Positions 3-41,334 of a DNA stretch of 63,519 bases are shown here, one piece after another. Source of the stretch: an uncultured bacterium (GTDB taxonomy: Bacteria; UBP6; UBA1177; JAKLFG01); the NCBI GenBank assembly GCA_937871295.1, contig CALMRE010000159.1:1-63519 (forward strand), written 5' to 3'. The number at the start of each line of letters is the position of its first letter. The first letter of the stretch is position 1. The notes under the pieces were generated by a model, which did not search any database, was not told the DNA's origin, and saw only the letters and a list, made by a program, of their open reading frames with translations. A program made the position numbers and the translations under genes.

Positions 3-1694
3 GACGGCGACGACCGCCTGGTCGCAGGTGCAGGCGACGACATCGTGACCGGCGTCAAGGTGCAGGACACGATTTCCGACTATGTCGACTATGTGCCCGG
101 CACCACCCAGATCGCCACGCAGATCCACGAAGACGAGGACGGCAACTGGATAGGCGACGACTGGGCCGCCATTTCCGACGGTCCGGGCGGCGTGTTCCCG
201 CTCGCCCAGCCCTACATGGTGGCCGAGCAGATGAACTACTGCGAACAGGCGGCCGAAACATGCGACGGCAAACACGACCGCCGGATGGTCCGTTTCAAGG
301 TCACCCCGAAGCAGGGGATACCGAAACATGCGGTCATCGAGAACATGGCGCTCATCTCCGACCCCGCGACCACCTCGAAACCCTACAAGACCAACACCTC
401 GATCCCGCTGAAACTCCATTCGGGCTCCTGCCTGCCGCTGGCGACCTGCGAAGAGATGGACATGGCCAAGTGCGGCGGCCCGTGGGAAAATGTCGAGCCC
501 CCGACCGACACCGATACCACCACCGACTCCGATGTCGTGACCGCCTGCGAGACCTCCGGGGTCAAGATCGAATACGCCATCGGCAAGAACAGTCCGGCCG
601 GCGAGATCATCATCCCCAACCCGACCAGCGGCCTGACCATCGGCCAGTTCACCCTCCTGGGCAAGACCTCGGGCGACAAACAGGACTGCACCTTCAAACT
701 CAATAAGGTCAAGATAAAGTTCGACAAAGACCAGACGGTCGCCCTGACCGAACTCAAACTGGTCCACGACACCAACGGCAACGGCAAGTACGATAACGGT
801 GAGACCGAGATCGCCACGACCGAAGCGCTCGAAGGGGCCTACGCCGAGTTCGAGGTCCCCTCGACCAAGCGCGATTTCAAGGAGAACACCCTGCTCTACT
901 TCGTCGTGGTCGCCAAGGCCACCGTCAACGCCGCCTCGATAGCGGCCAACATCACCTTCCAGGGGATGCTCGAAGGGAACGAAGCCCTGCTCGTCGCCGA
1001 CAAGGGGGCCGCGCAGGTGACCACCGACACCGAGCTGAAGTTCGCCACCTACATGTTCGAGCCCGACGGAAAATCGTTCATTATCACCCGCGGCGAGAAG
1101 GACCCGGCGGTGCCTTCCGCGATAGCCGATGTCAACACCTACCGCGAGATACTCCAACTCCGCACTAAATCGAAAGGCGATGCGAACATCCTCAAGGCGA
1201 TGACCGTCCGCATCACCAGCGGCTATGTCCTGTTCGGCGAAGGTCTCCAGAAGGTCGGAGTCTACGTCGACAACGGCGGCGACGGGACCGCCGATACCCT
1301 GCTGGCCGAAGGAACCGCCGCGAAGAGCGAGGACGAATACGAACTCAAATTCAACACGCCGCTGACCTACGCCGCCGACGAGGAGAAGTTCCTCGTGATC
1401 AAGGCCGATTTCAACCTTTCGAACGACACCAAGGGCCGCCTGCAGGTCAAAAAGTCGGGCGGTCTGAGTCTCGACAAGTCGGTCCAGATATACACCCTCC
1501 CGATAGATTCGAAGGAATATACGGCTTACTGTGACCCCAACGATCTGAACTGTGTCGAACCGGAGCCGGAACCGGATCCCTGCCAGTGCGCGATGACCGG
1601 CACCGATAACGCCGGAATGGCGTCGTTCCTGTTCACCCTCATGATGGGGCTCGCTCTCCTGTTCGTGAGCCGCCGCGTCTACGGCGGAAAATAA
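3..1694 (+). CDS. Large secreted surface protein, paralog A (5' part outside window): DUF11-like repeat, Cys linker, two beta-sandwich-like modules, MYXO-CTERM-like tail
   Basis: Frame is open from nt 3 (ORF-track start 45 is an internal GTG). Product aligns by eye with the C-terminal halves of the 1773-4829 and 4913-7969 proteins (VQD..DYVPGTTQIA, IGKNSP.., DTNGNGKYD). Ends CQC, 13 aa, hydrophobic helix, SRR. Confidence 0.8.
   Translation, partial: DGDDRLVAGAGDDIVTGVKVQDTISDYVDYVPGTTQIATQIHEDEDGNWIGDDWAAISDGPGGVFPLAQPYMVAEQMNYCEQAAETCDGKHDRRMVRFKVTPKQGIPKHAVIENMALISDPATTSKPYKTNTSIPLKLHSGSCLPLATCEEMDMAKCGGPWENVEPPTDTDTTTDSDVVTACETSGVKIEYAIGKNSPAGEIIIPNPTSGLTIGQFTLLGKTSGDKQDCTFKLNKVKIKFDKDQTVALTELKLVHDTNGNGKYDNGETEIATTEALEGAYAEFEVPSTKRDFKENTLLYFVVVAKATVNAASIAANITFQGMLEGNEALLVADKGAAQVTTDTELKFATYMFEPDGKSFIITRGEKDPAVPSAIADVNTYREILQLRTKSKGDANILKAMTVRITSGYVLFGEGLQKVGVYVDNGGDGTADTLLAEGTAAKSEDEYELKFNTPLTYAADEEKFLVIKADFNLSNDTKGRLQVKKSGGLSLDKSVQIYTLPIDSKEYTAYCDPNDLNCVEPEPEPDPCQCAMTGTDNAGMASFLFTLMMGLALLFVSRRVYGGK
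1581..1694 (+). other. MYXO-CTERM-like sorting tail of paralog A
   Basis: CQCAMTGTDNAGMASFLFTLMMGLALLFVSRRVYGGK: CxC, spacer, ~20-aa hydrophobic helix, Arg pair, C-terminus. Confidence 0.6.
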
Positions 1695-1730: not shown

Positions 1731-1772
1731 CTTTCCGGTAGGTTCAACGGGAACTTTTTCATGGAGGATGCC

Positions 1773-4700
1773 ATGCGTCTGATACGCGCTCTTTCGGCGG
1801 CGTTCGTTATCTTTGCCGCCACCGCTGTTTTCGCCCAACTCACCGGTTTCACCGGCGACACGCTCGGCCCCGATGTTTCGCAGTATCAGGGCAAGGCGCT
1901 CAAGTGGGAGCAGGGCAGTCACGATTATTTCGTCATGCACCGCTCGATGGTGGCCAACAACAATCCCGACAACGACAACGGCGGCCAGAACCCGCAGGCC
2001 GATTCCTGTATGGCCTCCAATTTCTTCACGGTGGACGGCTCCCATATGCCGCCCGACGCACTTGTTGAAAATGCCTTTCTCGTCTGGATATCGAACAATC
2101 CGAGCGCGAACCTCGGCGCGCCGACCGACAATCAGGTGCAACTCGACTTCACCGCGGCCGACGGCAGTTTCACCGTTTCGCGCACCGTTACCGCCAGCCG
2201 GGTCGGCTACCTCGGCGAAGAGGGGAATGTCGGCCAGCAGGACTTCGAATTCGAGGGGATGAAATTCGCCCGCGCCGGCGGCGCCTTCGATTGCGGCTAC
2301 TATACCTACCGCGTCGGCATAGACGATTTCTTCGCCGAGATACACCAGAAAGGACGCGACGCCGGCTACGGACTCGACGGCCTGTCGCTCAACGGCACCT
2401 ACACCCTTTCGCAGATGGCCTGCTTCAACGACGAGATATACTGGAGCGGCGGCGCGATGATCATCGGCGGCTGGGCGATCGTCGTCATCTACAAATCGGA
2501 AGAGATAACGCCGAAGATGATCTACATGTACAACGGCTTCAAGATGTACATGGACGAAGAGGCGCCCATACCGGTGACCGGGTTCGAACTGCCCGACACC
2601 CCGGCGGTCCGCGTCTCTCTGCTGGTCAACGAGGGCGATCCGAACATGGCCGATTTCACCTACTACAGCCACGCCGAATCGCTGATGCTCAAGGGGCAGA
2701 CGGCGCCCGACGTCCTCTATATCTTCAACGACTGCAACCCGCCGATGTCCCTGAACGGCGCGAACTACACCGAGATGTACAACTCGATATCCTCCTTCTA
2801 CGGCTGGAACGACACCACGCCGCTGTGCATCGGCGGCATCCCGCCCAATCTGGACCTCAACACCATCCAGTACGCGATGGACTTCGACACCTTCATCTTC
2901 TCGGCGGAGAATCCCCCCTTCGACCAGCACCTGAAACGGGGCGACACCTCGCTCGAACTGCGGGTCTCGGCCAACGCCGATGTCGTGGTCACCAATCTGA
3001 TGGTGGTCAGCGTCACCACCCGCGCCTCGAAATACGATATCCCGGTCAATCCGAACACCCCCAACGGCCGCGAGAAACATTTCTGCTCCTGCTCCCCGGT
3101 CGAAGATTCGGTCTGCTTCGACCGTCCCTACTACTACACGCTCAAGGTACAGAACTGGGGCGACGAACTGGGGGAGAACATCACCCTGCAGGACGATCTG
3201 CCGTCGCAGGTCGACTATGTGGCCGGTTCGACCGAGATAGCGCGCGCCTTCGACGCGAGCGGCAACGGCACCGACTGGACCGCGATACCCGACGGCGCCG
3301 GCGGCGCCTTCCCCTTCGCGACCCCGTACAAGGTGGCCGATGTCCTGACCTACTGCAACACGGTCACCAACGAGTGCCCCGACACGCTGCTCATCCGTTT
3401 CAAGGTCATGCCCAAGAACGGCCTCCCCAAGAACACCGTCATCGAGAACACCGCCGTCATAAACGATACCACCAACCTTCCCTACCGCACCAACACCACC
3501 GTGCCCCTGCGGCTCCGCTCGGGCAACTGCCCCTCTCCCGCCGAATGTCCCGAACCGACCAAAGCGGAGTGCGGCGGCGAGGCGCAGAACGCGACCGAAT
3601 GCCAGAACGATGAAGAGTGCGGCGACGGCAAAAAATGCGACAACGGCAACTGTGTGGTCGACACCGGTTCGTTCGCAAGCAACACCGCGGTCGAATTTGC
3701 GCTGGGCAAGAATTCGCCGGCCAATGGGTCCTCCATCTACGTGCCCGCCCCCTCTTCCGGGCTGATCGTGGGACAGTTCACCCTCAAGGCGATATCGCCC
3801 GGCAACAGCGGCAAGGTCTTCAGTTTCGATGATGTGAAGGTCAAATTCACCCTCAGCACTCCGCAGATACAACTGGGCGGCCTCACGCTGGTCCGCGATC
3901 TGAACGGCAACGGCGTGCGCGATCCCGAGGACACCGTGCTGGCGACCGCCGCCGGGCTCAGCGCCGGGTATGCCGACTTCGTGATACCGATAAACTCGCG
4001 CGCCTTCCCCGTCAACACCCTGCATTACTTCCTCGTGGTCGTCGACGCCGCCTTCAGCGGCCCGACGATACCGGCCAACGCCTCCTTCAAGGGCGAGATC
4101 GAGAACAGCGTTTCGCTCATCGTCAGCGACGCCGGTACGCCGACGGTCAAGGAGAACACGGTCCCCTTCGCCAGCTTCGCCTTCGATCCCTCGCAAGGCG
4201 CTTTCATCTTCACCAAGGGACCGAACGACCCTTCGGTCAGGGCACCCGCCGATATGAAAAGCGCGATGCCGCTGCTCCAGATACGGGCCGTCTCTCCGGG
4301 ACAGGCGAACACCATCGAACGGATAACGGTGAAGACCGCGACCGGTTCGGTCCGCTACGGCGAGGGGATCGCAAAACTCACCCTCTGGGCCGACACCGAC
4401 GGCAACGGCACGGGCGATGCGCCGATAACTTCGATGCCCGCCTATGAACCGGGCGATTCTTCGGTGGAGTTCGTTCTGCCGGGGGGCCTTGCGCTCGCCG
4501 CCGGCGAGACGAAATATCTCGTCCTGAACGGCGAACTGTCGCTTTCGGGGACCGAAAAGGCGATCCTCGAGGTTCCCAAGAGCGGCGTCGATCTGGGCAC
4601 CACCGCCACGATAGTCGAACTGCCGGTCCGCAGCCGCGAATTCACCGTCGTCTGCGATGTTACCGATGTCACCTGCAACGGGACGAACGGCGGCGATGAC

Positions 4701-4829
4701 GAAGTGACCGAAGAAGACACCGCCTGCGGCTGTTCGGTCGTCGGCGATACCGCATCAGGACCGTACGGCGCGGCACTCATCCTCATGGCGGCGCTCCTGC
4801 TGGCCATACGCCGTCTTTTCACCGCCTAA
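1773..4829 (+). CDS. Large secreted surface protein, paralog B (unassigned N-terminal domain, DUF11-like repeat, Cys-rich linker, two repeated modules, MYXO-CTERM-like tail)
   Basis: GGAGG lies 5 nt upstream of ATG 1773 (ATG 1761 is an alternative). Signal peptide MRLIRALSAAFVIFAATAVFAQ. DUF11-type block YYYTLKVQNWGDELGENITLQDDLPSQVDYVAGSTEIA. Linker CPEPTKAECGGEAQNATECQNDEECGDGKKCDNGNC. Confidence 0.85.
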   Translation: MRLIRALSAAFVIFAATAVFAQLTGFTGDTLGPDVSQYQGKALKWEQGSHDYFVMHRSMVANNNPDNDNGGQNPQADSCMASNFFTVDGSHMPPDALVENAFLVWISNNPSANLGAPTDNQVQLDFTAADGSFTVSRTVTASRVGYLGEEGNVGQQDFEFEGMKFARAGGAFDCGYYTYRVGIDDFFAEIHQKGRDAGYGLDGLSLNGTYTLSQMACFNDEIYWSGGAMIIGGWAIVVIYKSEEITPKMIYMYNGFKMYMDEEAPIPVTGFELPDTPAVRVSLLVNEGDPNMADFTYYSHAESLMLKGQTAPDVLYIFNDCNPPMSLNGANYTEMYNSISSFYGWNDTTPLCIGGIPPNLDLNTIQYAMDFDTFIFSAENPPFDQHLKRGDTSLELRVSANADVVVTNLMVVSVTTRASKYDIPVNPNTPNGREKHFCSCSPVEDSVCFDRPYYYTLKVQNWGDELGENITLQDDLPSQVDYVAGSTEIARAFDASGNGTDWTAIPDGAGGAFPFATPYKVADVLTYCNTVTNECPDTLLIRFKVMPKNGLPKNTVIENTAVINDTTNLPYRTNTTVPLRLRSGNCPSPAECPEPTKAECGGEAQNATECQNDEECGDGKKCDNGNCVVDTGSFASNTAVEFALGKNSPANGSSIYVPAPSSGLIVGQFTLKAISPGNSGKVFSFDDVKVKFTLSTPQIQLGGLTLVRDLNGNGVRDPEDTVLATAAGLSAGYADFVIPINSRAFPVNTLHYFLVVVDAAFSGPTIPANASFKGEIENSVSLIVSDAGTPTVKENTVPFASFAFDPSQGAFIFTKGPNDPSVRAPADMKSAMPLLQIRAVSPGQANTIERITVKTATGSVRYGEGIAKLTLWADTDGNGTGDAPITSMPAYEPGDSSVEFVLPGGLALAAGETKYLVLNGELSLSGTEKAILEVPKSGVDLGTTATIVELPVRSREFTVVCDVTDVTCNGTNGGDDEVTEEDTACGCSVVGDTASGPYGAALILMAALLLAIRRLFTA
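4725..4829 (+). other. MYXO-CTERM-like sorting tail of paralog B
   Basis: CGCSVVGDTASGPYGAALILMAALLLAIRRLFTA: CxC, spacer, hydrophobic helix, RR. Confidence 0.65.
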
Positions 4830-4837
4830 ATTTCCGT

Positions 4838-4866
4838 TTGACTTTTTCCCGCAACCCTTCTAGAAT
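4838..4866 (+). promoter_or_regulatory. sigma70-like promoter of paralog C
   Basis: TTGACT (4838-4843), 17 nt, TAGAAT (4861-4866). Preceded by ATTTCCGTT directly after stop TAA 4827-4829. The ORF-track start 4838 falls inside this -35 box. Confidence 0.5.
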
Positions 4867-4912
4867 GCTCCGAGAGGTTAGGATCACACACTGTCCTTTA
4901 ACGGAGGTCAAC

Positions 4913-7900
4913 ATGATGCGTTCCGTGTTCGTCATCGCACTTTGCGCCCTTCTCCTGCCCGTGACACTCTCGGCCCAGCTGGGCCCCGATGTATCACTCG
5001 ACAAGAACGGTCAACCTATCAAATGGGAAGAGGGTTCCCGTGATTTCTTCGTCATGTGGAAGTCTCTGGTGGCGCGCACCGACGGTTCGGTCGACACCGG
5101 CGCCACCAACCCGCAGGCCGACTCCTGCATCGATCCGAATGTCGGCAGCACCTATATACTGGCCGACGGCGTCATACCGGCCAACGCGACCATCGAGCGG
5201 GCGTTCCTCATCTGGATGGCGGTGGTGGACCCCGCCCAACTGACCGCGCCCACCGACAACAGCGTGACGCTCTCCTTCCAGCATTCCACCGTGGGCGGAC
5301 TGAGCCTTGTGCAGGATGTGACCGCCAGTTACGCCGGAACGCTCGCCAATGTGTCGGGCAAGGATTTCGAGTTCGAAGGGATACTCACCACCGATCCGAG
5401 CGGCGGCAACGACGGTATCTTCACCTACCGCGTAGATGTGACCGATTTCCTCACCCAGATACAGGCGCTCGGCAACGAACAGGGGATCACCGATCCCGGC
5501 CTCGCCCTGACCGGCTCCTACAACGTCAAGGGGGTGACCTGCTCGGCGGCCGAGGCCTACAAGACCTCGTCGGGACTCATGGCGGGCTGGGCGCTCGCGA
5601 TGGTCTATTCGGCCGAAGGCATCCACGCCAAGAAGATCTATTTCTACAACGGCCTCATGCCCTACCGTTTCAATTCGGGCGACATCATGATATCGGGCTT
5701 CCAGTTGCCCAACGAGGCCGAGATACGGATGACGCTGTTCGTCGGCGAGGGCGATCCGGGGCTCTACAGTGCGCTCGATCCGAACGGTGAAGGGCTGCAG
5801 TTGCACGGCCCCATCGACACCTCCGCTCCGTGGTTGCCGCTGTTCGATGCCTGCAACCCGAACATGGGCAACTATGTCGAAGTCTACAATTCTATCTCAT
5901 CTCTCTGGCCCTACGGCGCGACCCAGCCCTACTGCGTGGGAGGTGTTCCGCCCAACCTCGAATTGAACAACATCGAGTACGCGATGGATGTCGATACCTT
6001 CGTCATAAACGCGAAGGACGAGCCATTCGCCACCCACCTGCACAAGGACGACATCATGTTCTTCCTGAAGGTCGGCGCCAATCAGGATCAGGTCTACACC
6101 AATCTGCTCATCCTTTCCATCGACACCAAACCGCCGTCGTTCGATATCCCCGAAGGGACCGCCTTCTCGCAGAACGGCCGCGAAAAGGATATCTGCACCT
6201 GCGCCCCGGCCAACGAACCGGACCGCGTCTGCGACGACCGTCCTTTCTATTACGTCATCAAGGTGCAGAACTGGGGAGAGAACCTCGCCGACAATGTGAC
6301 GGTGCAGGACACCCTGCCGGCCGAGATCGACTACATTCCCGGCACCACCGAACTCGCGACCGCCTTCGACGGTAGCGGCAACGGCACCAACTGGACCGCG
6401 ATACCCGACAACGGCGGCTTCCCGCTGGCGGCCGCCGCTCAGGTGTGGGCCGCCGGGATGCAGTACTGCGATCCGATCGCGCAGACCTGCCCCGACTCGG
6501 CCCTGATCCGCTTCAAGGTACAGCCGAAACCGGGTCTGCCGAAGAATCAGATGATCAAGAACAGCGCCTACATCGCCGATGCGACCGGCATCTCCTACCA
6601 GTCGAACACCTCGGTCCCGCTGACGGTCCGTTTCTCCAATTCCTGCCCCCCCATCACCGACTGCCCCGAACCGACCAAAGCATCCTGCTACGGAGAGAAT
6701 CAGAACTGCACGAGCGACGAACAGTGCGGCGATCCGTGCAAACGGTGCGATAACGGGACCTGCGTGGAAGATAAAACCTTGCCCGATTGCGGCGGCGGCG
6801 GCGGAGACCTCTGCTCCGGCACGCGTCTGGATTACCGGGCGGGCGATATGTCGCCTTCGAACGGCACCGCGAAGATCATCGTGCCGGCGCCCGCCGCCGG
6901 CCTGACCATGGCGCAACTCGCCGTGAAAGCCACCTGTACCGGCTCCAACAAGAATTTCAGTCTCGACATGGTCCGGGTGAAGTTCGCCTTCGAAACCGGC
7001 GTGGCGTTGTCGAACCTGAAACTGATCAAGGACACCGACAGCAACGGCATCGAGAGCGCGGGCGATGTCACCATCGCCACCACCGCCGCGCTGGCGCAGG
7101 GATACGCCGAATTCGCCATTGACGCCAATTCCCGCGTTATGGCGGCCAACATCGACAACAACCTCCTCATCGTCGCCGACGCCGCCTACAACGGCACGAC
7201 GGTGCCCAGCGAGACCACCTTTCAGGCGATCATCGAAGGGGATGCCTCCTTCGTCGCGAAAGACGCCGCCGGCGGCATCGCCAACATACTCGACGAAGAA
7301 CTCGACTTCGCCACCTTCATGTTCGAGCCCTCGGTCGGCTACTTCATCTTCACCAAGGGGCCGAAGGAACCGGCCGAACCGGCGCACAATCTGCTCAACC
7401 GCAGCAACCCGGTCATACACATCCGCGCCAAATCGCTCGACGGCGAAAATCAGATCAAGAGCATCAGGATCGAACGGCTGGGCGAATCGACCGTCTTCGG
7501 CGAAGGCATCGAAACGATATCGATCTTCGAGGACACCAACGGCGACGGCGTCGGCGACGGGACGCCGATAGCGACCGCGGGCGATTTCGGCACGCCGGTC
7601 GAAGAGTATATGTTCGACAACCTCAACCTCAGACCCGAGTTCACCTTCTCCGATAAACAGGAACGCTACTATGTGCTCAACCTTACCTTCAAACTCGAAG
7701 AAGGGATGACCGGACAGGTCCAGATACCGCGTCTCGGGGTCAAACTGGCCGATTCGACCAAAAAGATCATCGAACTGCCCATCCAGTCGCGCAGTTATCA
7801 GTGCGTATCGCCTTTCTGCTATGAAGGTAAAACTGAAACCTGCGCCTGTTCTTTCGTGGCCGATGAGAACGAACCGACCCCGCCGTGGGCGGGCATCGTC

Positions 7901-7969
7901 CTGCTGATGGCGGCGTTGGGCTTGGCGGGCTTCGGTCTGCGGTCACGCCGGCGGCATCCTTCCGTGTGA
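4913..7969 (+). CDS. Large secreted surface protein, paralog C (same architecture as B)
   Basis: SD GGAGG 4903-4907, ATG 4913. Signal peptide MMRSVFVIALCALLLPVTLSAQ. FYYVIKVQNWGENLADNVTVQDTLPAEIDYIPGTTELA. CPEPTKASC..CTSDEQCGDPCKRCDNGTC. Collinear with paralog B throughout. Confidence 0.85.
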   Translation: MMRSVFVIALCALLLPVTLSAQLGPDVSLDKNGQPIKWEEGSRDFFVMWKSLVARTDGSVDTGATNPQADSCIDPNVGSTYILADGVIPANATIERAFLIWMAVVDPAQLTAPTDNSVTLSFQHSTVGGLSLVQDVTASYAGTLANVSGKDFEFEGILTTDPSGGNDGIFTYRVDVTDFLTQIQALGNEQGITDPGLALTGSYNVKGVTCSAAEAYKTSSGLMAGWALAMVYSAEGIHAKKIYFYNGLMPYRFNSGDIMISGFQLPNEAEIRMTLFVGEGDPGLYSALDPNGEGLQLHGPIDTSAPWLPLFDACNPNMGNYVEVYNSISSLWPYGATQPYCVGGVPPNLELNNIEYAMDVDTFVINAKDEPFATHLHKDDIMFFLKVGANQDQVYTNLLILSIDTKPPSFDIPEGTAFSQNGREKDICTCAPANEPDRVCDDRPFYYVIKVQNWGENLADNVTVQDTLPAEIDYIPGTTELATAFDGSGNGTNWTAIPDNGGFPLAAAAQVWAAGMQYCDPIAQTCPDSALIRFKVQPKPGLPKNQMIKNSAYIADATGISYQSNTSVPLTVRFSNSCPPITDCPEPTKASCYGENQNCTSDEQCGDPCKRCDNGTCVEDKTLPDCGGGGGDLCSGTRLDYRAGDMSPSNGTAKIIVPAPAAGLTMAQLAVKATCTGSNKNFSLDMVRVKFAFETGVALSNLKLIKDTDSNGIESAGDVTIATTAALAQGYAEFAIDANSRVMAANIDNNLLIVADAAYNGTTVPSETTFQAIIEGDASFVAKDAAGGIANILDEELDFATFMFEPSVGYFIFTKGPKEPAEPAHNLLNRSNPVIHIRAKSLDGENQIKSIRIERLGESTVFGEGIETISIFEDTNGDGVGDGTPIATAGDFGTPVEEYMFDNLNLRPEFTFSDKQERYYVLNLTFKLEEGMTGQVQIPRLGVKLADSTKKIIELPIQSRSYQCVSPFCYEGKTETCACSFVADENEPTPPWAGIVLLMAALGLAGFGLRSRRRHPSV
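7841..7969 (+). other. MYXO-CTERM-like sorting tail of paralog C
   Basis: CACSFVADENEPTPPWAGIVLLMAALGLAGFGLRSRRRHPSV: CxC, spacer, hydrophobic helix, RSRRR. Confidence 0.65.
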
Positions 7970-28960: not shown

Positions 28961-29383
28961 CTACTTCACCAGTCCCGCGATGAATCCCCACGGTACGAAA
29001 TAACCTAATCCCCACGACACGAGGTTCGCGCCGTAGGAAAGGACGAGCGGTTGCCACCACCGCTTCGGCCGGAGGAAGAACCAGTACCACGCCGCCTCGA
29101 TGAGCGGGATGAAGATGAGTTCACGCGACCAGACCGGATCGAACACCTGCAGGATGAACGGCACATCGGGACGCGCCATGATGGTGAGCACCGGTAGAAT
29201 GAGGATGAAAAGCGGATGGGTCAGACACTGCGCGACCACACCCGCCGCGACGGTGCGTTTGGCGGTCGCCTTGAAGAGGCCGAACCACCGGAACGCGAAC
29301 AGCACCGGTATCTCTATCGCGAACGACAGAATGAACGCCGTCCCATAGGTGACGGTCAGCGCCGGCCAGTTTATATGCGGCAT
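28961..29383 (-). CDS. 140-aa polytopic membrane protein (4 predicted TM helices), unknown family
   Basis: Four hydrophobic segments carrying membrane-embedded E24, H56, E96 and N120. SD GAGG lies 4 nt before ATG 29383. Starts 16 nt downstream of the tiny tail-peptide gene. Confidence 0.65.
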   Translation of the reverse strand: MPHINWPALTVTYGTAFILSFAIEIPVLFAFRWFGLFKATAKRTVAAGVVAQCLTHPLFILILPVLTIMARPDVPFILQVFDPVWSRELIFIPLIEAAWYWFFLRPKRWWQPLVLSYGANLVSWGLGYFVPWGFIAGLVK

Positions 29384-29399
29384 GAAACCTCGGTAAAAA

Positions 29400-29423
29400 C
29401 TACAGGAGGGTCAATGCACAACC
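29400..29423 (-). other. Short Cys-containing C-terminal tail (G-C-A-L-T-L-L-stop)
   Basis: Codons read directly: GGT TGT GCA TTG ACC CTC CTG TAG. Same type of ending as at 36163-36192 and 38578-38604. Confidence 0.6.
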
Positions 29424-29588
29424 GACCTCATCACCACTTGTCTCTTCGACATCGGTATCGCTGTTTTCGTCCATACTGACATAGTCGACATCATACTCCT
29501 CTTGATCCTCGTCAGGAGGCGGCGTTTCTCCGTTGATATTCAGAGTCAAGCCGAGAACCATGAACAGGATCAACAACCGCTTTTTCAC
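29400..29588 (-). CDS. 62-aa secreted acidic peptide ending in VGCALTLL (tail-only protein)
   Basis: GTG 29588. Signal peptide MKKRLLILFMVLGLTLNING. Acidic segment ETPPPDEDQEEYDVDYVSMDENSDTDVEETSGDE. C-terminus GCALTLL. Has its own promoter. Confidence 0.6.
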   Translation of the reverse strand: MKKRLLILFMVLGLTLNINGETPPPDEDQEEYDVDYVSMDENSDTDVEETSGDEVGCALTLL

Positions 29589-29620
29589 GACACACCCCCG
29601 TTCCTCAAAAATAACGACAG

Positions 29621-29649
29621 AGTATAACCGGAGCGCAGAAAAGAGTCAA
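29621..29649 (-). promoter_or_regulatory. sigma70-like promoter of the tail-peptide/membrane-protein operon
   Basis: On the minus strand: TTGACT (29649-29644), 17 nt, TATACT (29626-29621). Preceded by TAAAATTTCCATT, the same cassette as at 1692 and 4827. Confidence 0.5.
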
Positions 29650-29658
29650 ATGGAAATT

Positions 29659-31134
<1,476 letters not shown>

Positions 31135-31261
31135 AGAATGCTCCAAAATCGTTTTTCAAATCACCGATCGGTATGGACAGATACTGCAGACGGAATGCAG
31201 AAGCGTCGAACGATCACGCCGCGTTTATAGCACAAGTATGAACAAATAGCAAGGGTTATTT

Positions 31262-32356
31262 TCACTCCCCCAGCCAGAGGTTGAGTCCGCTCACGATGAG
31301 CGTCGAGACCTCGTTGCCCGCGTCGTGCCGCACATAGTCGTAGGTGATGACGGTGCCTACCATGTCTCCGAGTTCCACTCCGTTAAAGGAATACCAGCGG
31401 AGGTAACTTCCCTCGTAGCCGAACCCGACCCCCATCGGAAGGGTCGGCGGGAGCGACAGCGTGTACTGCAGTTCAGCATAGTCCGATTCGGGGATGTCGC
31501 TTTCGTAGAAACGGACGGTGAGCGTCACCGAATTGTTCCCGTTGAACTGCTCGGTAAAGGTGTCGGTCGTCCAGAACTCGCGGATGTCGGTGGGCGACAC
31601 GACGATCCGCAGATAGCCCTCGGGCGTCTCGGCGTTGTCGGCGTAGAAGTAGCGGACCATTGAGTCCTTTGACCCGTTGCATTCGCCTTCATGCTTGATC
31701 GCGACATCGTTCATCCATGCGGTACATTCGTCGCCGTAGACCCTGAGGTCACAGCCGCACACCGGCGCCGGTTCCTCCGGCTGGGGGCAGTCGGGCGGTT
31801 GCGGACGGCAGACGCCGAACCCCATATCACAGACGCCGACTTTCTTCTCGCAGAATTCGTTCTCGCCGCACTCGTCGTTGCGGAAGCAGAGGACATCGCC
31901 GTCGCATTCGCCCGCATGGTCGATCACCGCGCCGCTGGCGGCGGCCCAGCACTGGTTGCTGTAGGTATAGTCATCACAGCCACACTGCGGGGCGACGGCG
32001 CGGGTCATGAAGCAGTCGGTCGGTCGGTTATCACACTTCCCCATGACCGCCTCGCTACAGGAGCCGAGCGGCTTGGCGCAGAACTCGTCTTCGGCGCACT
32101 GATCGTTGGATGTGCAATCGACCAGCGCGTCACTATCGGGTTCCTCATCGGTCATCGGATCGTCGGTGACTATCTCGTCGGTGGCGACATCGTCGGACTG
32201 ATCTGTCTGATCTGACTGATCCGTCGGATCCGACTGATCGTCGTCACCCGCCACCGTCTGATCGGTCAGGGTGTCGGTGTCGCTCTTGTTCGCCGTCGTG
32301 TTGTCGCACGCGACAAACAGCAGAAGCGCAAAAAACCCAATAAAAACAAGTCTCAT
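31262..32356 (-). CDS. Lipoprotein with acidic tether, two Kazal-like Cys domains and a C-terminal beta-rich domain
   Basis: Lipobox LLLFVAC. D/T/Q-rich tether. QCGCDDYTYSNQCWAAASGAVIDHAGEC and VCGCDLRVYGDECTAWMNDVAIKHEGEC resemble the Kazal core (CG.D..TY.N.C......G.C). Confidence 0.6.
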   Translation of the reverse strand: MRLVFIGFFALLLFVACDNTTANKSDTDTLTDQTVAGDDDQSDPTDQSDQTDQSDDVATDEIVTDDPMTDEEPDSDALVDCTSNDQCAEDEFCAKPLGSCSEAVMGKCDNRPTDCFMTRAVAPQCGCDDYTYSNQCWAAASGAVIDHAGECDGDVLCFRNDECGENEFCEKKVGVCDMGFGVCRPQPPDCPQPEEPAPVCGCDLRVYGDECTAWMNDVAIKHEGECNGSKDSMVRYFYADNAETPEGYLRIVVSPTDIREFWTTDTFTEQFNGNNSVTLTVRFYESDIPESDYAELQYTLSLPPTLPMGVGFGYEGSYLRWYSFNGVELGDMVGTVITYDYVRHDAGNEVSTLIVSGLNLWLGE

Positions 32357-34977: not shown

Positions 34978-36192
34978 ATGAAAAAACTCATCGTATCGGC
35001 GATACTGCTCTTCGCGCTGGCTCTTCCGGCGCAGGTGATCAACGAGGCGTGGCGGCCCGACGAAGGGCCGGTATGCTACGCCGTTCCGATACTCGACTAT
35101 TCGACGATGACGGCCAAGGAGATGGCCATCCACTACTTCACCAACCTCGCCCGGATGGGCTACGACTGCGGCACCCCGGCGCTCGAATGCGGCTCCAGCG
35201 GCACCCTGCCGCTGTTCGCGCTCGACTTCAAGCTCTCCACCGCCGCCCGCTGGTTCAGCAAACACCTCAACGACACCCCCTGCTTCCAGCACGACACCTG
35301 CTGCACCCTCACCCTCGCGGGCGACGAGGTCCAGTGCGTCAGCGGCACCGCCTGCACCAATCAGCCGTGCGACAAGACCTACTGCGCCGGCACCTCGTGG
35401 GTCGAACGGATAGCGCTCTTCGGCGCCAGTCCGACCGGCGAGAACCTCGCCGCCGGGAACGAACTGGCCGTATCGACCCTCTGCCAGTGGATGAACTCGC
35501 CGGGGCACCGCGACAATATCTGCCTCCCCACCCACACCTCGCTCGGCACCGGCTACCACGGCGGGCAGAACTGTTTCTATCATTACTGGACGCAGGATTT
35601 CGGCGGCGGCACACAGAGCGGGCGACTCTATCCCGGCGCCCTGTTCATCGACGGCACCCTCACCGCCGGGGTCGTCGTGAAGACACCTTCGGCCGCCACC
35701 GATGCCTCGGTGTTCGTCGACGGAGCCGAAACAACGCTTTCCAACACCTTCGGCACCGCCATCCGCGGCGCATGGAGCGCGGCGGTAGCGGCGGCCGACT
35801 GCGCCGCCTACCACTTCACCGTCTCGTTCGCCGACAGCAAGACAGAACGGTTCCCGCCGACCGGCTACCTCTTCAACAGCGAGAATCCCGCGGAATGCGA
35901 AGCGCCCGACGGCGACCCCGACAGCGACACCGCGAAACCTGACGATACCACGCCCGACGACGCGCAACCCGACGATCAGCCCGATCAGACCGCCGAGTCC
36001 GACCTGCCCGACGGAACGGTACCCGACGAAGAGTCCGACGACCACTCCACCATCCCCTACGACTTCAATCCGGCAAAGGATGACGCCGGGGCGGCTGGCG
36101 ACACCGACACGGCGCCGTCCGATTGGGATTTCGCGTGGCCCGACACCGATAAACCGTCCGACGGCGGCTGTTCCTGCGCCCTCATTCCGTAA
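34978..36192 (+). CDS. Secreted CAP/SCP/PR-1-like domain protein with acidic tether and short CxC tail
   Basis: Signal peptide. GENLAAGN....L..WMNSPGHRDNI ... YWTQDFG CAP motifs. About 90-aa D/P/T-rich tether. Ends SDGGCSCALIP. Confidence 0.75.
   Translation: MKKLIVSAILLFALALPAQVINEAWRPDEGPVCYAVPILDYSTMTAKEMAIHYFTNLARMGYDCGTPALECGSSGTLPLFALDFKLSTAARWFSKHLNDTPCFQHDTCCTLTLAGDEVQCVSGTACTNQPCDKTYCAGTSWVERIALFGASPTGENLAAGNELAVSTLCQWMNSPGHRDNICLPTHTSLGTGYHGGQNCFYHYWTQDFGGGTQSGRLYPGALFIDGTLTAGVVVKTPSAATDASVFVDGAETTLSNTFGTAIRGAWSAAVAAADCAAYHFTVSFADSKTERFPPTGYLFNSENPAECEAPDGDPDSDTAKPDDTTPDDAQPDDQPDQTAESDLPDGTVPDEESDDHSTIPYDFNPAKDDAGAAGDTDTAPSDWDFAWPDTDKPSDGGCSCALIP
36163..36192 (+). other. Short CxC C-terminal tail (GGCSCALIP-stop)
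   Basis: ggc ggc tgt tcc tgc gcc ctc att ccg taa. No TM helix or basic cluster follows the Cys motif. Confidence 0.6.
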
Positions 36193-36282: not shown

Positions 36283-38604
36283 ATGATTTTCCGGCTTGTC
36301 GCTTCGTGCGTTTTCGCACTTCTCCTTTCTGTTTCGCTCCACGCCGGCGACTCCTTCGTCTCGCTTGAAGGCTACCCCATGGCAACGCCGCTGTTCCCGA
36401 ACTACATCCTGTTCGAGCAGACCCTCGCCGTGCAGAACGGCCGCATCGGGATGGTGCTCTACCCCGCCCCCGGCGATCCGGCGCTCATTACCCGCGACGA
36501 CAGCGAACTGTCGCTCTTCGCCGCCTGCGACAGCGCCGCGCTCGACCACATCGAGATCGGCAAGGAGACGGCCGAAGGCTTCGTACCGTTCCTGTCGCTC
36601 ACCCATAAGTCGTTCCTCCCGGCGGGCAACGGCGTGACCCGATTCTTTTTCGACCTCCCCTACCAACTGCCGCACGGCGTCTACACCCTGCGCGCCGTCA
36701 TCAACGGACTCCCGGTGACCGTTCCCAACGGCGTCGGCTTCATCGCCGAGAAGCGGATCGCTTTTACTCTCTGGGCCGATCCGCAGATAGAGGATCTGCA
36801 GTCGAAGAAGGACATCAATCTCAACTGGAACGATCACTCCTACCCCGGCTTTTCCGACGATCTGCTCGACTACTCGCGTCAGCAGGGGATCATCGCCATC
36901 GCCATCGCGCAGATGAGCGCGATGGACACCGACTTCATCGCCTGTCTGGGCGATCTGGTGTTCGGCATCAACCATCAGCGCGAATACGAGGATATCGTCC
37001 AGTTCCTCGCAAAGGCCGAGATACCCTTCTTCGGCGTGCCGGGCAACCACGACGGCTACGCGAAGTTCGAGAACGAGAACGACTTCACCACGCCGCTGGA
37101 ACGCGACGGACTCAACTACTGGCGCGCCTTCATCGGACCCACCTACTCATCGTTCAAGATATTCGGCAAGACGCTTATGATGCTCAACACCTACGACGGC
37201 ACCGCCGAACGCCGCGCATCGGGCGATCCGATCGGCATCGGCGACAACGGCGCCGCGCCGGTCAGCAACTACGGCGGCTTCCTCTCCGACCCGCAGCTCC
37301 TCTGGGCGACCGAATCGTTCGCCGTGGGCGAAGTGGCGATGATGTTCTCGCACCAGCTGCCCATCGGCATGGTCGAGAGCGGTTTCGAGTTCACCCCGAT
37401 GGAGAAATATCCGGCCAACCGCATCATCGGCGCCTTCGTCGACGAGGAATGGAACATCGAGACGACCGCCTACGACAGTAACATGCTCGACACGATCTTC
37501 GCCGAGAGCGGCACCTACAACACCGGCACGCGGCTGTTGGGCGCGATGCTCCCCGAATTCCCGCGGCCGCCGATCTACTTCGCGGGCCATGCCCACCGCG
37601 ACCGCTACTACCATTTCGAAGCGGGCAGTGAAGTGATCCCCGGCACCGGACTCTTCGCGCCGCAGGAGATCGTCTTCACCCAGACCAAGAGCGCCGCCAG
37701 TTCGGGAGAAGCTTACTGGGGCATCCGGCCCATCTATCACGATATCGAGACCGCGACCACCTCCTTCAGCTATCTCTGCGCCGACGACGCCGACTGCAAC
37801 CCCGACAAAGAGGGCGAGAAGGCGGGGTTCCCCTCGATGCCGCTCGGCAATTTCTGGGTGAACTACACCGCGAGCGAAACGACATCGCTCTACATCGGCG
37901 GCAACGGCGTGTCGGTCACGGCGCAGGCCGAGATCGTCAACTTCCTGCCGACGGCGCAGACGGCGCGGCTCCGCTTCGTGATGCCGGCAAAGGAACTCGG
38001 GTATCTCTTCGACTCGGCCGAGCCGGTCATCGACGACGCCATGCTCTCGGCCGACCGCAAGACGATGCTCATCACTGCAAAGGGCGAAGTGGCCGCCGGT
38101 TCGACCGTCGAAGGGTTCCTCCAGCGGCAGTTCATCAGGAACAGCGTCACCGCCTCGCTTGCCCCAGACACCGTGGCGGCACCCGTTCCGGAGGTCGAAT
38201 ACGAGGAATGGATACCGGGTAATTCTCCGCTGGAGTTCACCGTCACCAACGCGGACGACTATTTCCACCTCATCTGGCACCGCGACGGGAAACCGGTCCG
38301 CGATGGTGCCGAGTTCAAGGAGAAGTTCAACCCCTACCATCCGAAAGAGGCCATCGAGCTGCTCTACATCGCCAAGAACGGCGCTTTCGGCATCAAGCAG
38401 TTCTCGGTCGATGTGGAAGAGGAAGAGACCGACGATGATGCGCTGTTGTCCGACGATGAGGAGATAAAGGACGAAAGCGACATAAAGGACGAAGAAGCGA
38501 TATCGGACGACGACCCCATCACGACTCACGACTCACTTCTCACGGATACCGACCCGATCATCAAAAAAGACAATACCGGCTGCGGGTGTACGCTCCTGTT
38601 TTAG
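36283..38604 (+). CDS. Secreted calcineurin-like metallophosphoesterase with acidic tether and short CxC tail
   Basis: Signal peptide MIFRLVASCVFALLLSVSLHA. Motifs CLGDLVFG, GVPGNHDGY and FAGHAHRD. D/E-rich tether. Ends NTGCGCTLLF. Confidence 0.8.
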   Translation: MIFRLVASCVFALLLSVSLHAGDSFVSLEGYPMATPLFPNYILFEQTLAVQNGRIGMVLYPAPGDPALITRDDSELSLFAACDSAALDHIEIGKETAEGFVPFLSLTHKSFLPAGNGVTRFFFDLPYQLPHGVYTLRAVINGLPVTVPNGVGFIAEKRIAFTLWADPQIEDLQSKKDINLNWNDHSYPGFSDDLLDYSRQQGIIAIAIAQMSAMDTDFIACLGDLVFGINHQREYEDIVQFLAKAEIPFFGVPGNHDGYAKFENENDFTTPLERDGLNYWRAFIGPTYSSFKIFGKTLMMLNTYDGTAERRASGDPIGIGDNGAAPVSNYGGFLSDPQLLWATESFAVGEVAMMFSHQLPIGMVESGFEFTPMEKYPANRIIGAFVDEEWNIETTAYDSNMLDTIFAESGTYNTGTRLLGAMLPEFPRPPIYFAGHAHRDRYYHFEAGSEVIPGTGLFAPQEIVFTQTKSAASSGEAYWGIRPIYHDIETATTSFSYLCADDADCNPDKEGEKAGFPSMPLGNFWVNYTASETTSLYIGGNGVSVTAQAEIVNFLPTAQTARLRFVMPAKELGYLFDSAEPVIDDAMLSADRKTMLITAKGEVAAGSTVEGFLQRQFIRNSVTASLAPDTVAAPVPEVEYEEWIPGNSPLEFTVTNADDYFHLIWHRDGKPVRDGAEFKEKFNPYHPKEAIELLYIAKNGAFGIKQFSVDVEEEETDDDALLSDDEEIKDESDIKDEEAISDDDPITTHDSLLTDTDPIIKKDNTGCGCTLLF
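38578..38604 (+). other. Short CxC C-terminal tail (GCGCTLLF-stop)
   Basis: ggc tgc ggg tgt acg ctc ctg ttt tag. Confidence 0.6.
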
Positions 38605-39832: not shown

Positions 39833-40795
39833 TTAATAAACTTTTATATCAAAGTCTTTCAGTTTTCTTGGAAGATGATCGTCCAAATTTGAAACCTCAT
39901 GATCATTCAATTCTATCAATGGAACTCCATACTTCTTGTAAATCTCTATTTTTTTCTTTTTTCGTTCTTCATATTTCTTGTCATTTTCAATACCCCAGTA
40001 TTCAATAAATACTTTTCCCGCAGGAAGATAAAAATCTGATATCATATCATCTGGAATATTGGGAACTTTTCTCTCATACGCATGTACGATTCCTGAATCA
40101 TATAAGTAGTTATCAATAATGACCTCTGCTTTTGAGCGGACATAGTGCCCATCTTTTGTTCGGTGCATCGTGGGATAAAGCTTTCTAACATCATCAGATC
40201 CTTGATTGGTATTGACAAGCTGTTGAGGCGGGGGAAGCTCCTTGCTTTTTTCCTCATGAGTATCGTGGAACGCCTCTATGATGTTCTTGTTTTGTAAAAT
40301 ACTTTGGGGCCACATGACATAAGCCGTACCTTTTTTATCGTGCTCATAATTTCTTCCTCCAACACTAACGCCAAATTTGGTTACCTTCCAACCATTTGGT
40401 CTTTGCCCAACAAAAACTCTTTCAATCAACCCAATCTCCGACAAAATGAGATTAAGCCGTTCTGCTGAGACTCCGAAGTGTTCCCCAATTTTAGTTGAGT
40501 TAATAAGTTTTGCGCCCTCTTCCGCACTTTCCTTTGTTTTTTTCTGCACGATTTCTTTGATTTCTTCTTTTTCCCTCGGTTTTTCCGAATCAAACTTTAT
40601 GTCCTCTGGCCACACTATAAAATCACCATACTGAGAACTTGTTCTTACTTGTCCACCTTTTTGTTTGCCAAGTTCGGTCAGAACCAACTTGTCATTCTTA
40701 TTCTCAATCCAGCCCAGTGTTTTAAGCCGACCTATAAGGTCATTGTTCGACAGATCCAACTTTTTCGCGAGTTTCGCTGTTGAAATAAGATCCAT
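39833..40795 (-). CDS. Two wHTH-like repeats + C-terminal PD-(D/E)xK-like nuclease-fold domain protein
   Basis: Internal repeat (ISTAKLAKKLDLS...LGWIE...LVLTELG..GG ; INSTKIGEHFGVS...IGLIE...WKVTKFG..GG). C-terminus RSKAEVIIDNYLYDSGIVHAYERKV...SDFYLPAGKVFIEYWG...Y..R...K..IY...G..LIEL. Confidence 0.45.
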   Translation of the reverse strand: MDLISTAKLAKKLDLSNNDLIGRLKTLGWIENKNDKLVLTELGKQKGGQVRTSSQYGDFIVWPEDIKFDSEKPREKEEIKEIVQKKTKESAEEGAKLINSTKIGEHFGVSAERLNLILSEIGLIERVFVGQRPNGWKVTKFGVSVGGRNYEHDKKGTAYVMWPQSILQNKNIIEAFHDTHEEKSKELPPPQQLVNTNQGSDDVRKLYPTMHRTKDGHYVRSKAEVIIDNYLYDSGIVHAYERKVPNIPDDMISDFYLPAGKVFIEYWGIENDKKYEERKKKKIEIYKKYGVPLIELNDHEVSNLDDHLPRKLKDFDIKVY

Positions 40796-40881
40796 GAGTT
40801 TTCCTCCTGTTGAAAATTATTTCCTCAAATCATCAGGAGAATAAATTATCGGCTTGAGGAAAGCAAGAAATACGAAGGTTG

Positions 40882-40897
40882 CTATTTCTTGACCGGC
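40882..40897. repeat. 16-nt direct repeat copy 1 (CTATTTCTTGACCGGC)
   Basis: 15/16 identical to 42587-42602. Supplies the stop and last four codons (PVKK) of the 40882-41334 ORF. GC-rich patch in AT-rich surroundings. Confidence 0.7.
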
Positions 40898-41334
40898 GCA
40901 AATAGTTTTTCCCTTTTCATAAAAACGACAGGAGAGCCGTATATACCACCGGACATAGAATCAAGGGTATGCGACACATCCCATTCTTCGCCCAGTTTAC
41001 TTGTCCAAAGATTAGGACCGATCTGTCTTGCCGCATGAGTCGGTATGCCTTCTTTTTCGCGCTTTTCAAAAATAGCCACTTTCTCAAAGCCTTCTTCATA
41101 AGAGCCATTCAAACAGAGCTCATATCCATAAAGACGGTAGAATGAAATAAACGCCTCCAGCGTTTCCTCTCTTTTTATTGTGGCAGGCCAAAACATGTAG
41201 GGACCTGGCCAACACCAACGATTATCAATCTGTGCCGCCCATGCAATACAATTGTAGAGCGGTGTTTGCGGGCTGGTTATTTTGAACGGCTTCTCTTTAG
41301 ATAAGGGAAACTCATTCGGGGATATCTTTGTCAT
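40882..41334 (-). CDS. Putative Cys/His (papain- or NlpC/P60-like) hydrolase-fold protein
   Basis: ATG 41334 (the ORF-track start 41364 is TTG). PLYNCIAWAA (candidate nucleophile Cys) and IPTHAARQ (candidate His) about 75 aa apart. No secretion signal. Confidence 0.4.
   Translation of the reverse strand: MTKISPNEFPLSKEKPFKITSPQTPLYNCIAWAAQIDNRWCWPGPYMFWPATIKREETLEAFISFYRLYGYELCLNGSYEEGFEKVAIFEKREKEGIPTHAARQIGPNLWTSKLGEEWDVSHTLDSMSGGIYGSPVVFMKREKLFAPVKK

Follow-up and report, generated by a model that had tools for sequence, protein, structure and literature searches.

A small four-helix membrane protein family often encoded beside cysteine-tailed secreted proteins, a candidate factor of bacterial C-terminal protein sorting

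A pair of adjacent minus-strand genes, coding for a 62-amino-acid (aa) peptide with a short cysteine tail and for a 140-aa membrane protein, is described here from a 63.5-kb stretch of DNA of an uncultured bacterium (contig CALMRE010000159.1; the whole stretch is referred to as the window). The best reading of the two genes is that they constitute a dedicated substrate-and-factor module of a Cys-type C-terminal sorting system. Its gene neighbourhood, with relatives directly after Cys-tagged surface proteins in about half of the loci examined, makes the membrane protein a strong candidate for a new sorting factor of such proteins in bacteria. This reading draws on the conservation of the pair, on a statistical link between the membrane protein family and Cys tails, on invariant residues in a confidently modelled fold and on the lack of a known homologue.

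The layout given in the preliminary description of this DNA can be read directly in the sequence. The product of the first gene consists of a Sec-type signal peptide (MKKRLLILFMVLGLTLNING), a 34-aa acidic tether (ETPPPDEDQEEYDVDYVSMDENSDTDVEETSGDE) and the residues VGCALTLL at the C-terminus; a gap of 16 nucleotides (nt) with the ribosome-binding sequence GAGG then leads to the gene of the 140-aa protein (Table 1). The spacer measures 15–16 nt in the other close relatives in which it is readable. With its tail intact, the pair recurs in four independent assemblies, which is more than chance. At the related loci L006, L007 and L001, the orthologous peptides have retained a signal peptide, an acidic composition and the ending GDE[VG]GC[AS]L[TI]LL. 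The body of the peptide evolves fast (non-synonymous divergence, pN, about 0.43 between lineages), whereas its signal peptide, acidic character and final ten residues are retained, and the reading frame with its signal peptide and tail is maintained across lineages through in-frame indels. The ratio of non-synonymous to synonymous changes (pN/pS) of the membrane-protein gene was 0.13–0.36, indicating purifying selection on this gene. The exact 62-aa sequence was not found in a collection of 15 billion proteins, in which neighbouring genes of the same contig are present. This open reading frame (ORF) was either not called there or called with a different start; the 60-aa orthologue of L001 was called.

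In the clade of the window, the gene located 15–16 nt upstream of the membrane-protein gene always ends in GC[AS]L[TI]LL, an ending given for close relatives as GC[AS]L[TI]LL(D). This slot is occupied by a 60–64-aa peptide in the window, L001, L006 and L007, by a 272-aa protein in L003, and by a 214-aa protein followed by the peptide in L006. The 62-aa peptide is probably derived from a full-size client by loss of the body. Directly upstream of the operon lies a DEAD-box helicase gene (29659–31146, minus strand), whose product carries a long, basic C-terminal extension of low complexity. In the window, L001 and L006, the helicase gene is conserved to the left of the operon. The content of the interval that separates it from the membrane-protein gene varies: L006 contains an additional NYN gene, the gene of the 214-aa tail protein and that of the peptide, and in L003 a NYN gene precedes the gene of the 272-aa tail protein.

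A word-indexed search yielded seven close relatives of the 140-aa protein with 75–90% identity, and an exhaustive HMMER profile search of 1.8 billion cluster representatives yielded only eight real clusters. A further match from the representatives, the 1856-aa low-complexity repeat protein P0010, was discarded as false. A profile enlarged by these clusters retrieved 99 proteins of 105–160 aa, all of them unnamed or hypothetical and none with a Pfam domain. The family comprises about 100 proteins of 105–140 aa, which come from uncultured bacteria. Named sources of family members are metagenome-assembled genomes (MAGs) labelled Deltaproteobacteria, Myxococcota and Planctomycetia, and the window's own clade was found in MAGs labelled "uncultured Spirochaetales bacterium".

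The neighbourhood of the family was analysed at 54 metagenomic loci and on further contigs, 57 of which were non-redundant and included upstream sequence. All loci were retrieved through the membrane protein only, so that the test is not circular. A partner was defined as a same-strand ORF ending at most 100 nt upstream, and the background consisted of the remaining ORFs with 80 aa or more on these stretches of DNA. The upstream partner ends in a Cys motif, a transmembrane (TM) helix and a basic cluster at 23 of the 57 loci and in a short Cys tail without TM helix at seven. The corresponding background counts are 20 and 15 among 2267 ORFs, respectively (about 1–1.5%). For the class with Cys, TM helix and basic cluster, Fisher's test gave an odds ratio of 76 (p = 4e-28), and for both Cys classes combined p = 9e-35. 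The expected co-occurrence of the tails with the membrane protein family was thus borne out, with a Cys-tail protein directly upstream in 30 of 57 loci.

In distant relatives (25–55% identity), the upstream gene lies 1–40 nt away and typically carries the full tripartite signal, for example ..DDGCGCSANPYAAGFPLTALMLVIGLAPLLFSRRKR. The partner at L012 is itself a tail-only protein of 113 aa, composed of a signal peptide, an Asp-rich tether, GSCAMA.., a TM helix and RKRAKS. At L022 and L046, two or three Cys-tail genes stand in series ahead of the membrane-protein gene. Three of ten partners tested passed the MYXO-CTERM model TIGR03901.2 (26.0, 27.3 and 21.9 bits), the others staying below the cut-off. 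The bodies of the partners are unrelated to each other: alongside tail-only peptides of 60–113 aa there are a Pel9A-like beta-helix enzyme, members of two unrelated small families that are conserved, and several proteins without Pfam match. Signal peptide and tail are all that they have in common. Variable bodies with a constant tail, encoded beside a polytopic membrane protein, form the pattern that revealed earlier sorting enzymes (Haft 2023).

In DNA of high guanine-plus-cytosine (GC) content, spurious antisense ORFs dominated most of an all-versus-all clustering of the neighbouring ORFs, and the only real recurrent family obtained from it was a major facilitator superfamily (MFS) neighbour. 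This divergent MFS-type transporter of about 370–400 aa (PF07690 just under threshold) adjoins the family gene in about 11 loci, such as L012 (4417–5532, minus strand), L059 (1300–2442, plus strand) and, upstream of the family gene, L061 and L062. In some of them it immediately precedes the family gene, and no tail protein is encoded between the two.

Two further observations concern the partners. A second, very uniform Cys signal, C-[SQ]-[IF]-G-x(6-8)-R-x-[AVG]-P-W-[LFM]-[LM]-A-G-[AS]-F-S-L-L-F-L-F-x-R-R-R, is carried by the partners directly upstream at L052, L057, L059 (e.g. L059:2439–2834), L063, L064, L065 and L070. Its bearers are small Cys-rich, Thr-rich proteins of about 130–240 aa and reach only about 12 bits on the MYXO-CTERM model. 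Its counterpart in the membrane family is a subgroup of 109 aa, and an MFS-type gene often lies directly upstream. The signal may represent a separate undescribed CTERM class. At L017, from a Planctomycetia-labelled MAG, the family gene is flanked by the gene of an 80-aa protein (6336–6578, minus strand) with signal peptide, short linker, TM helix and RFRR; a 336-aa protein encoded nearby (3996–5006, plus strand) ends in a TM helix and RRRR, and both are without the Cys. Given the Cys-free partners with TM helix and basic residues at L017, L043 and L045, Cys may not be universal among the partners.

The tail of the peptide shares with MYXO-CTERM an invariant Cys motif near the C-terminus, here G-C-A-L-T-L-L, with GCGC and GCSC variants on a metallophosphoesterase and a CAP-domain protein encoded in the same window. 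It ends five residues beyond the Cys and has neither the TM helix nor the Arg-rich cluster, two of the three features that define MYXO-CTERM; the TIGR03901 model, with its cut-off of 20 bits, did not match. On these grounds the peptide tail is a truncated relative of MYXO-CTERM and not a member. Since the commonest partner of the family carries a full tripartite MYXO-CTERM-type signal, the short tail is a lineage-specific truncation of a known class rather than an unrelated new signal. The earlier proposal of a short, TM-less Cys signal related to MYXO-CTERM is in line with this.

The truncation is genuine. No TM helix is encoded in any frame after the stop codons of the CAP and phosphoesterase genes, and the stop codon of the peptide gene is followed directly by the spacer and then by the start of the 140-aa gene. 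Restoration of a TM helix by stop-codon readthrough or frameshift is ruled out by the sequence after all three stops. Tails were found to be conserved in orthologues of both the peptide and the CAP protein, as had been expected: CAP orthologues end in GGCSCAIIL, GGCGCAIIL, AGCSCALIP and GCGCSVVF, with variable tethers ahead of these endings. The short tail GCGCSVVF corresponds to the start of a giant protein's long tail, ACGCSVVG.., and both forms occur side by side in one genome. Assignment to the CaaX box was rejected, as the Cys is trailed by four to six residues (ALTLL, ALIP, TLLF, SVVF, ALTLLD) and the proteins carry Sec signal peptides.

Membership of the membrane protein in known families was tested with single members, a 14-member set and an 83-member set, and no meaningful match was obtained in Pfam, NCBIfam (June 2026) or the sequences of the Protein Data Bank (PDB). 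PF02517 and the myxosortase models matched none of the 83 members, even at E up to 10. A search with a synthetic CPBP consensus retrieved nothing from PDB sequences or plasmids; real PF02517 proteins were retrieved and used for hhalign. Comparison of the family alignment with 30 of these proteins gave a probability of 2.2%, and the CPBP/Rce1 motifs EExxxR, FxxxH and HxxxN/D are absent from the family. Foldseek comparison of the structural model described below with 350,000 PDB chains returned nothing better than E = 2.6 or a TM-score of 0.35. No Rce1 or rhomboid structure was present among the 50 matches listed, a result that is supportive rather than conclusive given the weakness of Foldseek on all-helical membrane proteins. 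The top rows were occupied by MAPEG proteins, which are four-helix thiol-conjugating enzymes; with E values of at least 2.6 and TM-scores of at most 0.30, these matches are at noise level and were not used as evidence. The CPBP/Rce1-like fold considered earlier is therefore not supported.

Rhomboids possess six TM helices and a Ser-His dyad (the Ser of GxSG and a His in TM helix 6), and exosortases and archaeosortases possess about eight TM helices and a Cys-Arg-His triad. The rhomboid/rhombosortase family (PF01694) was rejected, there being no Pfam or NCBIfam match and only four TM helices. For exosortases and archaeosortases, the four helices, the lack of a conserved Cys and of an invariant Arg, and the absence of a family match led to the same result. 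The only recurrent match was to SpoIIGA (Peptidase_U4, PF03419), found in 9 of 83 members and below the gathering threshold throughout (best score 16.3 bits with a threshold of 28.4, E = 0.006). It covers profile positions 8–103, which we take to be the N-terminal membrane part of SpoIIGA, and is regarded as a weak lead. By the tests available, the protein is not a homologue of myxosortases, rhombosortases or exosortases. Its expected position outside the known families is in line with these results, and no description of the family or of the TM-less form of the signal was found in the searchable literature library. Of four findings named beforehand as contrary to the pairing, three were looked for (no co-occurrence of tail and family, no tails in orthologues, membership of the membrane protein in a known family), and none of them was found.

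An alignment of 83 family sequences with a mean column identity of 30% revealed seven invariant residues, P26, H56, P57, E88, E96, N120 and S123. E24 is present in 82 sequences, the remaining one being gapped at this position, and T55 and G127 are nearly invariant. The resulting family motifs are E-x-P, T-H-P, E-x7-E and A-N-x-x-S; no conserved Cys was found in the alignment, and no Arg occurs among the invariant columns. The four polar residues that had been singled out as membrane-embedded (E24, H56, E96 and N120) thus proved to be conserved throughout the family.

AlphaFold2 with the 83-sequence alignment predicted a four-helix bundle with a predicted local distance difference test (pLDDT) score of 95.5 and a predicted TM-score (pTM) of 0.85, with helices at residues 6–33, 41–70, 84–104 and 111–127. 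This model confirms the four TM helices assigned from the sequence and supersedes an earlier one from eight close homologues, which was unusable (pLDDT 54). A positive-inside analysis counted 3.2 and 2.1 Lys and Arg residues per sequence in loops 1 and 3, respectively. No such enrichment is present in loop 2 or at the termini, and an N-out/C-out topology is therefore predicted. Under this topology, E24, H56, E96, N120 and S123 would be located mid-membrane and E88 at the periplasmic end of helix 3. At L024 (2656–3372) and L031 (2635–3351), two four-helix copies are fused in tandem in one ORF of 238 aa. The N-terminal copy is degenerate, with T-H-G in place of T-H-P and without the first Glu of helix 3, and the C-terminal copy is canonical. 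These fusions suggest a dimer as the functional unit, and the membrane protein probably acts in this form. At L031, an array resembling clustered regularly interspaced short palindromic repeats (CRISPR) lies immediately upstream of the fused gene (1061–2392; repeat of about 35 nt, GTCTTCCGATGTGATTCCTTCGGGAAAATGAAAAC, with a period of 69–74 nt).

From these data we infer direct recognition of the tail, catalysis and an order of steps as follows. The peptide would be exported by the Sec pathway and its signal peptide removed, leaving the acidic tether that ends in G-C-A-L-T-L-L. The remaining tail would present the signature motif of a MYXO-CTERM-type signal together with its first few hydrophobic residues, without the TM helix and the Arg cluster. 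The membrane protein, oriented N-out/C-out and probably dimeric, would bind the Cys-proximal part of the signal at the periplasmic face, where E88 would be placed at the mouth of the mid-membrane polar cluster of E24, H56, E96, N120 and S123. In the processing step, a Glu/His/Asn (or Ser-His) centre would most likely hydrolyse off the residues that follow the Cys; its chemistry would resemble that of CPBP proteases or rhomboids without homology to either. The invariant S123 and H56 are the residues by which a rhomboid-like Ser-His chemistry may be effected. Cleavage may be coupled to, or follow, a modification of the Cys, and the clients would end up attached to the membrane or the surface. 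Partners that have lost the TM helix and the Arg cluster are still paired with the family, which argues for recognition of the Cys-proximal motif and not of the helix.

With moderate confidence, we consider that the Cys-proximal portion of the signal is bound at the periplasmic face by the small protein, that this protein then performs a processing step and that the peptide is a minimal client. The part of the earlier proposal that places the 140-aa protein in the processing or anchoring of a Cys signal is supported by its association with the tails; the label "enzyme" is suggested by the conserved intramembrane polar residues. A wider version is put forward only tentatively: the four-helix family may constitute a new class of sorting or processing enzymes for invariant-Cys signals, unrelated to sortases, exosortases, rhombosortases and CPBP myxosortases, and the window's lineage may have reduced its signal to a TM-less, CaaX-like periplasmic tail (G-C-x-x followed by three to five hydrophobic residues and the C-terminus). 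If so, this would be the first bacterial example of a short extracytoplasmic Cys tag of this type.

Several findings weigh against a processing enzyme dedicated to these tails. No tail-bearing upstream partner was found at 25 of the 57 loci (44%), and at two more (L043, L045) the partner ends in a TM helix and a basic cluster without Cys. Loci without such a partner include the low-GC relatives L009, L072 and L074 as well as housekeeping-like contexts next to MurJ, GlmU-like or MFS genes. With 105–140 aa, the protein is small for an enzyme, and the Foldseek comparison showed no similarity to any protease or transferase fold. In the homologue searches the family was not found in cultured Myxococcota, so that it cannot be a universal factor of MYXO-CTERM. 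Furthermore, MrtX alone processes TraA in E. coli (PMC11980579).

The high share of loci without a tail-bearing neighbour, along with the members found among cell-envelope housekeeping genes, would fit an incidental adjacency of abundant Cys-tail proteins and a housekeeping membrane protein. An incidental adjacency is hard to reconcile with an enrichment of about 45- to 70-fold over the local background (p < 1e-27), with the fixed orientation and tiny gaps of 1–40 nt, and with the arrays of Cys-tail genes that precede the family gene at L022 and L046. A secreted peptide toxin with its immunity protein would be another explanation of this kind. Such a bacteriocin and immunity pair does not fit the strong acidity of the peptide, its low conservation outside the tail or the diversity of the partners, one of which is a 559-aa pectate-lyase-like enzyme. 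Both explanations are considered very improbable.

The processing of TraA bears on a second alternative, in which the membrane protein modifies the Cys and a CPBP-type myxosortase encoded elsewhere performs the cleavage. The enzyme would attach a lipid or another group to the invariant Cys, or join the new C-terminus to a lipid. For MYXO-CTERM, the Cys-modifying enzyme is explicitly unassigned (PMC11980579; Haft 2023, bioRxiv 10.1101/2023.06.07.544157): the protease MrtX was identified, the step acting on the invariant Cys was not (PMC11980579). A modifier would explain the neighbourhood statistics equally well, and modification of the Cys may be the sole step required by a TM-less tail, which needs no release of a helix. 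On the other hand, the protein features no transferase motif and no significant fold match. TraA is processed by MrtX in E. coli, which is without this family (PMC11980579), so that any modification required there would be performed by a widespread enzyme. A motif scan that covered the window and the first loci fetched revealed no CPBP gene. We regard a modifier as unlikely.

The small size of the protein would also be in line with a non-catalytic role as receptor, escort, retention factor, anchor or subunit of a larger machine, for example together with the MFS-type neighbour. Some loci pair the family gene with an MFS or other polytopic membrane protein, with or without a tail protein, and the degenerate first half of the fused tandem copies suggests an oligomeric scaffold. 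Against such a role, buried E, H, E, N and S residues that are invariant across divergent sequences are more typical of catalysis or ion binding, and the pairing holds where the partner offers no TM helix to bind. Binding would still have to target the tail, given that the client bodies are unrelated. A purely non-catalytic function thus appears quite unlikely, and processing of a minimal client by the four-helix protein is kept as the preferred reading.

The operon is preceded by a promoter-like region (Table 1), in which the last six bases of a 15-mer form the -35 hexamer TTGACT. The TTGACT-17-TATACT arrangement spans 29649..29621 and obtained a scan score of 10/12. The 15-mer, AATTTCCRTTTGACT, occurs in exactly three copies in the window (at 1693, 4829 and, on the minus strand, 29644), compared to about 0.07 expected by chance. 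The two other copies, at 1693–1707 and 4829–4843, are located upstream of genes for giant Cys-tail proteins, so the claim of a promoter cassette shared with giant proteins is real for two of their genes and this operon. The same core was found upstream of the equivalent partner operon in the related contigs L003 and L006. The common 15-mer is a hint of possible co-regulation with the giant Cys-tail protein genes.

The further Cys-tailed proteins of the window are listed in Table 1. The short ending noted earlier for the CAP protein and the metallophosphoesterase, as well as the long CxC-TM-RR tails of the three giant proteins, are present in the sequence. The short ending common to the former two consists of an acidic tether, G-C-x-C/L, three to five hydrophobic residues and the C-terminus, and the CAP protein is a probable further client of the same signal class. 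An example of a long tail on a giant protein is ..ACGCSVVGDTASGPYGAALILMAALLLAIRRLFTA; of the three giant-protein tails, one scored 18.1 bits against TIGR03901, below its cut-off.

Table 1 Positions of the gene pair, its promoter-like region and other Cys-tailed proteins in the window
Feature	Position	Strand	Basis or remark
140-aa four-helix inner-membrane protein gene, founder of an undescribed family	28961..29383	(-)	Homologue searches, alignments, AlphaFold2
Intergenic spacer, 16 nt, TTTTTACCGAGGTTTC	29384..29399	(-)	Shine-Dalgarno GAGG 5 nt ahead of next ATG
62-aa "tail-only" pre-protein gene	29400..29588	(-)	GTG start; ORF and translation
Promoter-like region	29621..29658	(-)	15-mer AATTTCCATTTGACT at 29658..29644, -35 TTGACT, 17-nt spacer, -10 TATACT ending 29621
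Giant surface protein, 5' end cut by window edge; tripartite tail CQC, TM helix, SRR	45..1694	(+)	Tail sequence
Giant DUF11-repeat protein, tripartite tail ACGCSVVGDTASGP-TM-RR	1761..4829	(+)	TIGR03901 18.1 bits; 15-mer at 1693-1707
Giant DUF11-repeat protein, tripartite tail CAC..TM..RSRRR	4838..7969	(+)	15-mer at 4829-4843
CAP-domain secreted protein, acidic tether and short Cys tail ..GGCSCALIP-COOH	34978..36192	(+)	Tail kept in orthologues
Metallophosphoesterase, acidic tether and short Cys tail ..GCGCTLLF-COOH	36283..38604	(+)	Sequence, domain match

Two features of the window stand apart from the Cys-tailed proteins. In a lipoprotein of the window (31262–32356, minus strand) and in one of L072 (4435–5871), an acidic tether is located N-terminally, right after the lipobox Cys, a layout that mirrors the C-terminal arrangement of acidic tether and then Cys tail. 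The GC content falls to 0.42 at positions 40001–42000, compared to about 0.60 elsewhere. This stretch, with the minus-strand genes 39833–40795, 40882–41364 and 41758–42501, was probably acquired as an island by horizontal transfer.

What bacteria display on their surface is decided by C-terminal sorting tags and the membrane enzymes that act on them, and the neighbourhood link of this unannotated family to Cys tags is comparable in kind to the evidence behind earlier sorting enzymes. The natural minimal substrates of 60–113 aa are suited to mass spectrometry and reconstitution, and in the TM-less variant of the tag, recognition of the Cys motif can be told apart from that of the helix. MYXO-CTERM-like sorting is extended to uncultured lineages labelled Spirochaetales and Planctomycetia, and the annotation of about 100 proteins now called hypothetical, plus their clients, would be improved.

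Among known systems, MrtJ/JDVT-CTERM (Haft 2023, bioRxiv 10.1101/2023.06.07.544157) likewise comprises two genes, for a client and a polytopic membrane protein, and a C-terminal signal with an invariant Cys; it too is a sporadic dedicated module recognised by gene neighbourhood. However, MrtJ belongs to the glutamic proteases of the CPBP/Rce1 type and has about seven TM helices, whereas the family described here has four helices and no CPBP motifs. Moreover, the membrane-protein gene follows the client gene here, and the signal of the window's lineage is without TM helix and Arg cluster.

The resemblance to MrtX/MYXO-CTERM (PMC11980579) lies in the three of ten tested family partners that pass the model, in the GCGC-type tripartite tails of the window's giant proteins and in the short tails, which correspond to the first 7–9 residues of the MYXO-CTERM signal. 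In contrast to the present family, which is often co-operonic with clients, MrtX is a single-copy housekeeping CPBP enzyme and never co-operonic with them (PMC11980579). Neither in sequence nor in fold is the family related to MrtX, and the searches revealed no member in cultured myxobacteria.

Eukaryotic and archaeal CaaX processing by prenyltransferase, Rce1 and ICMT is similar in that a Cys a few residues from the C-terminus is followed by aliphatic residues and a membrane-embedded factor takes part, as proposed here. It differs in the position of the Cys, which is exactly fourth from the end in CaaX proteins and fifth to seventh here, and in its location at the cytosolic or endoplasmic reticulum face, whereas the present proteins are Sec-exported and their factor is not Rce1-like. 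Rhombosortase/GlyGly-CTERM, exosortase/PEP-CTERM and archaeosortase/PGF-CTERM share with the gene pair a C-terminal tag, a polytopic membrane enzyme (in our case a putative one) and minimal tail-only clients, but their catalytic families are not matched by the present family in Pfam, NCBIfam or Foldseek. Compared to all of these, the new elements here are the protein family, so far undescribed, and the variant of the signal without TM helix, within a known kind of sorting system.

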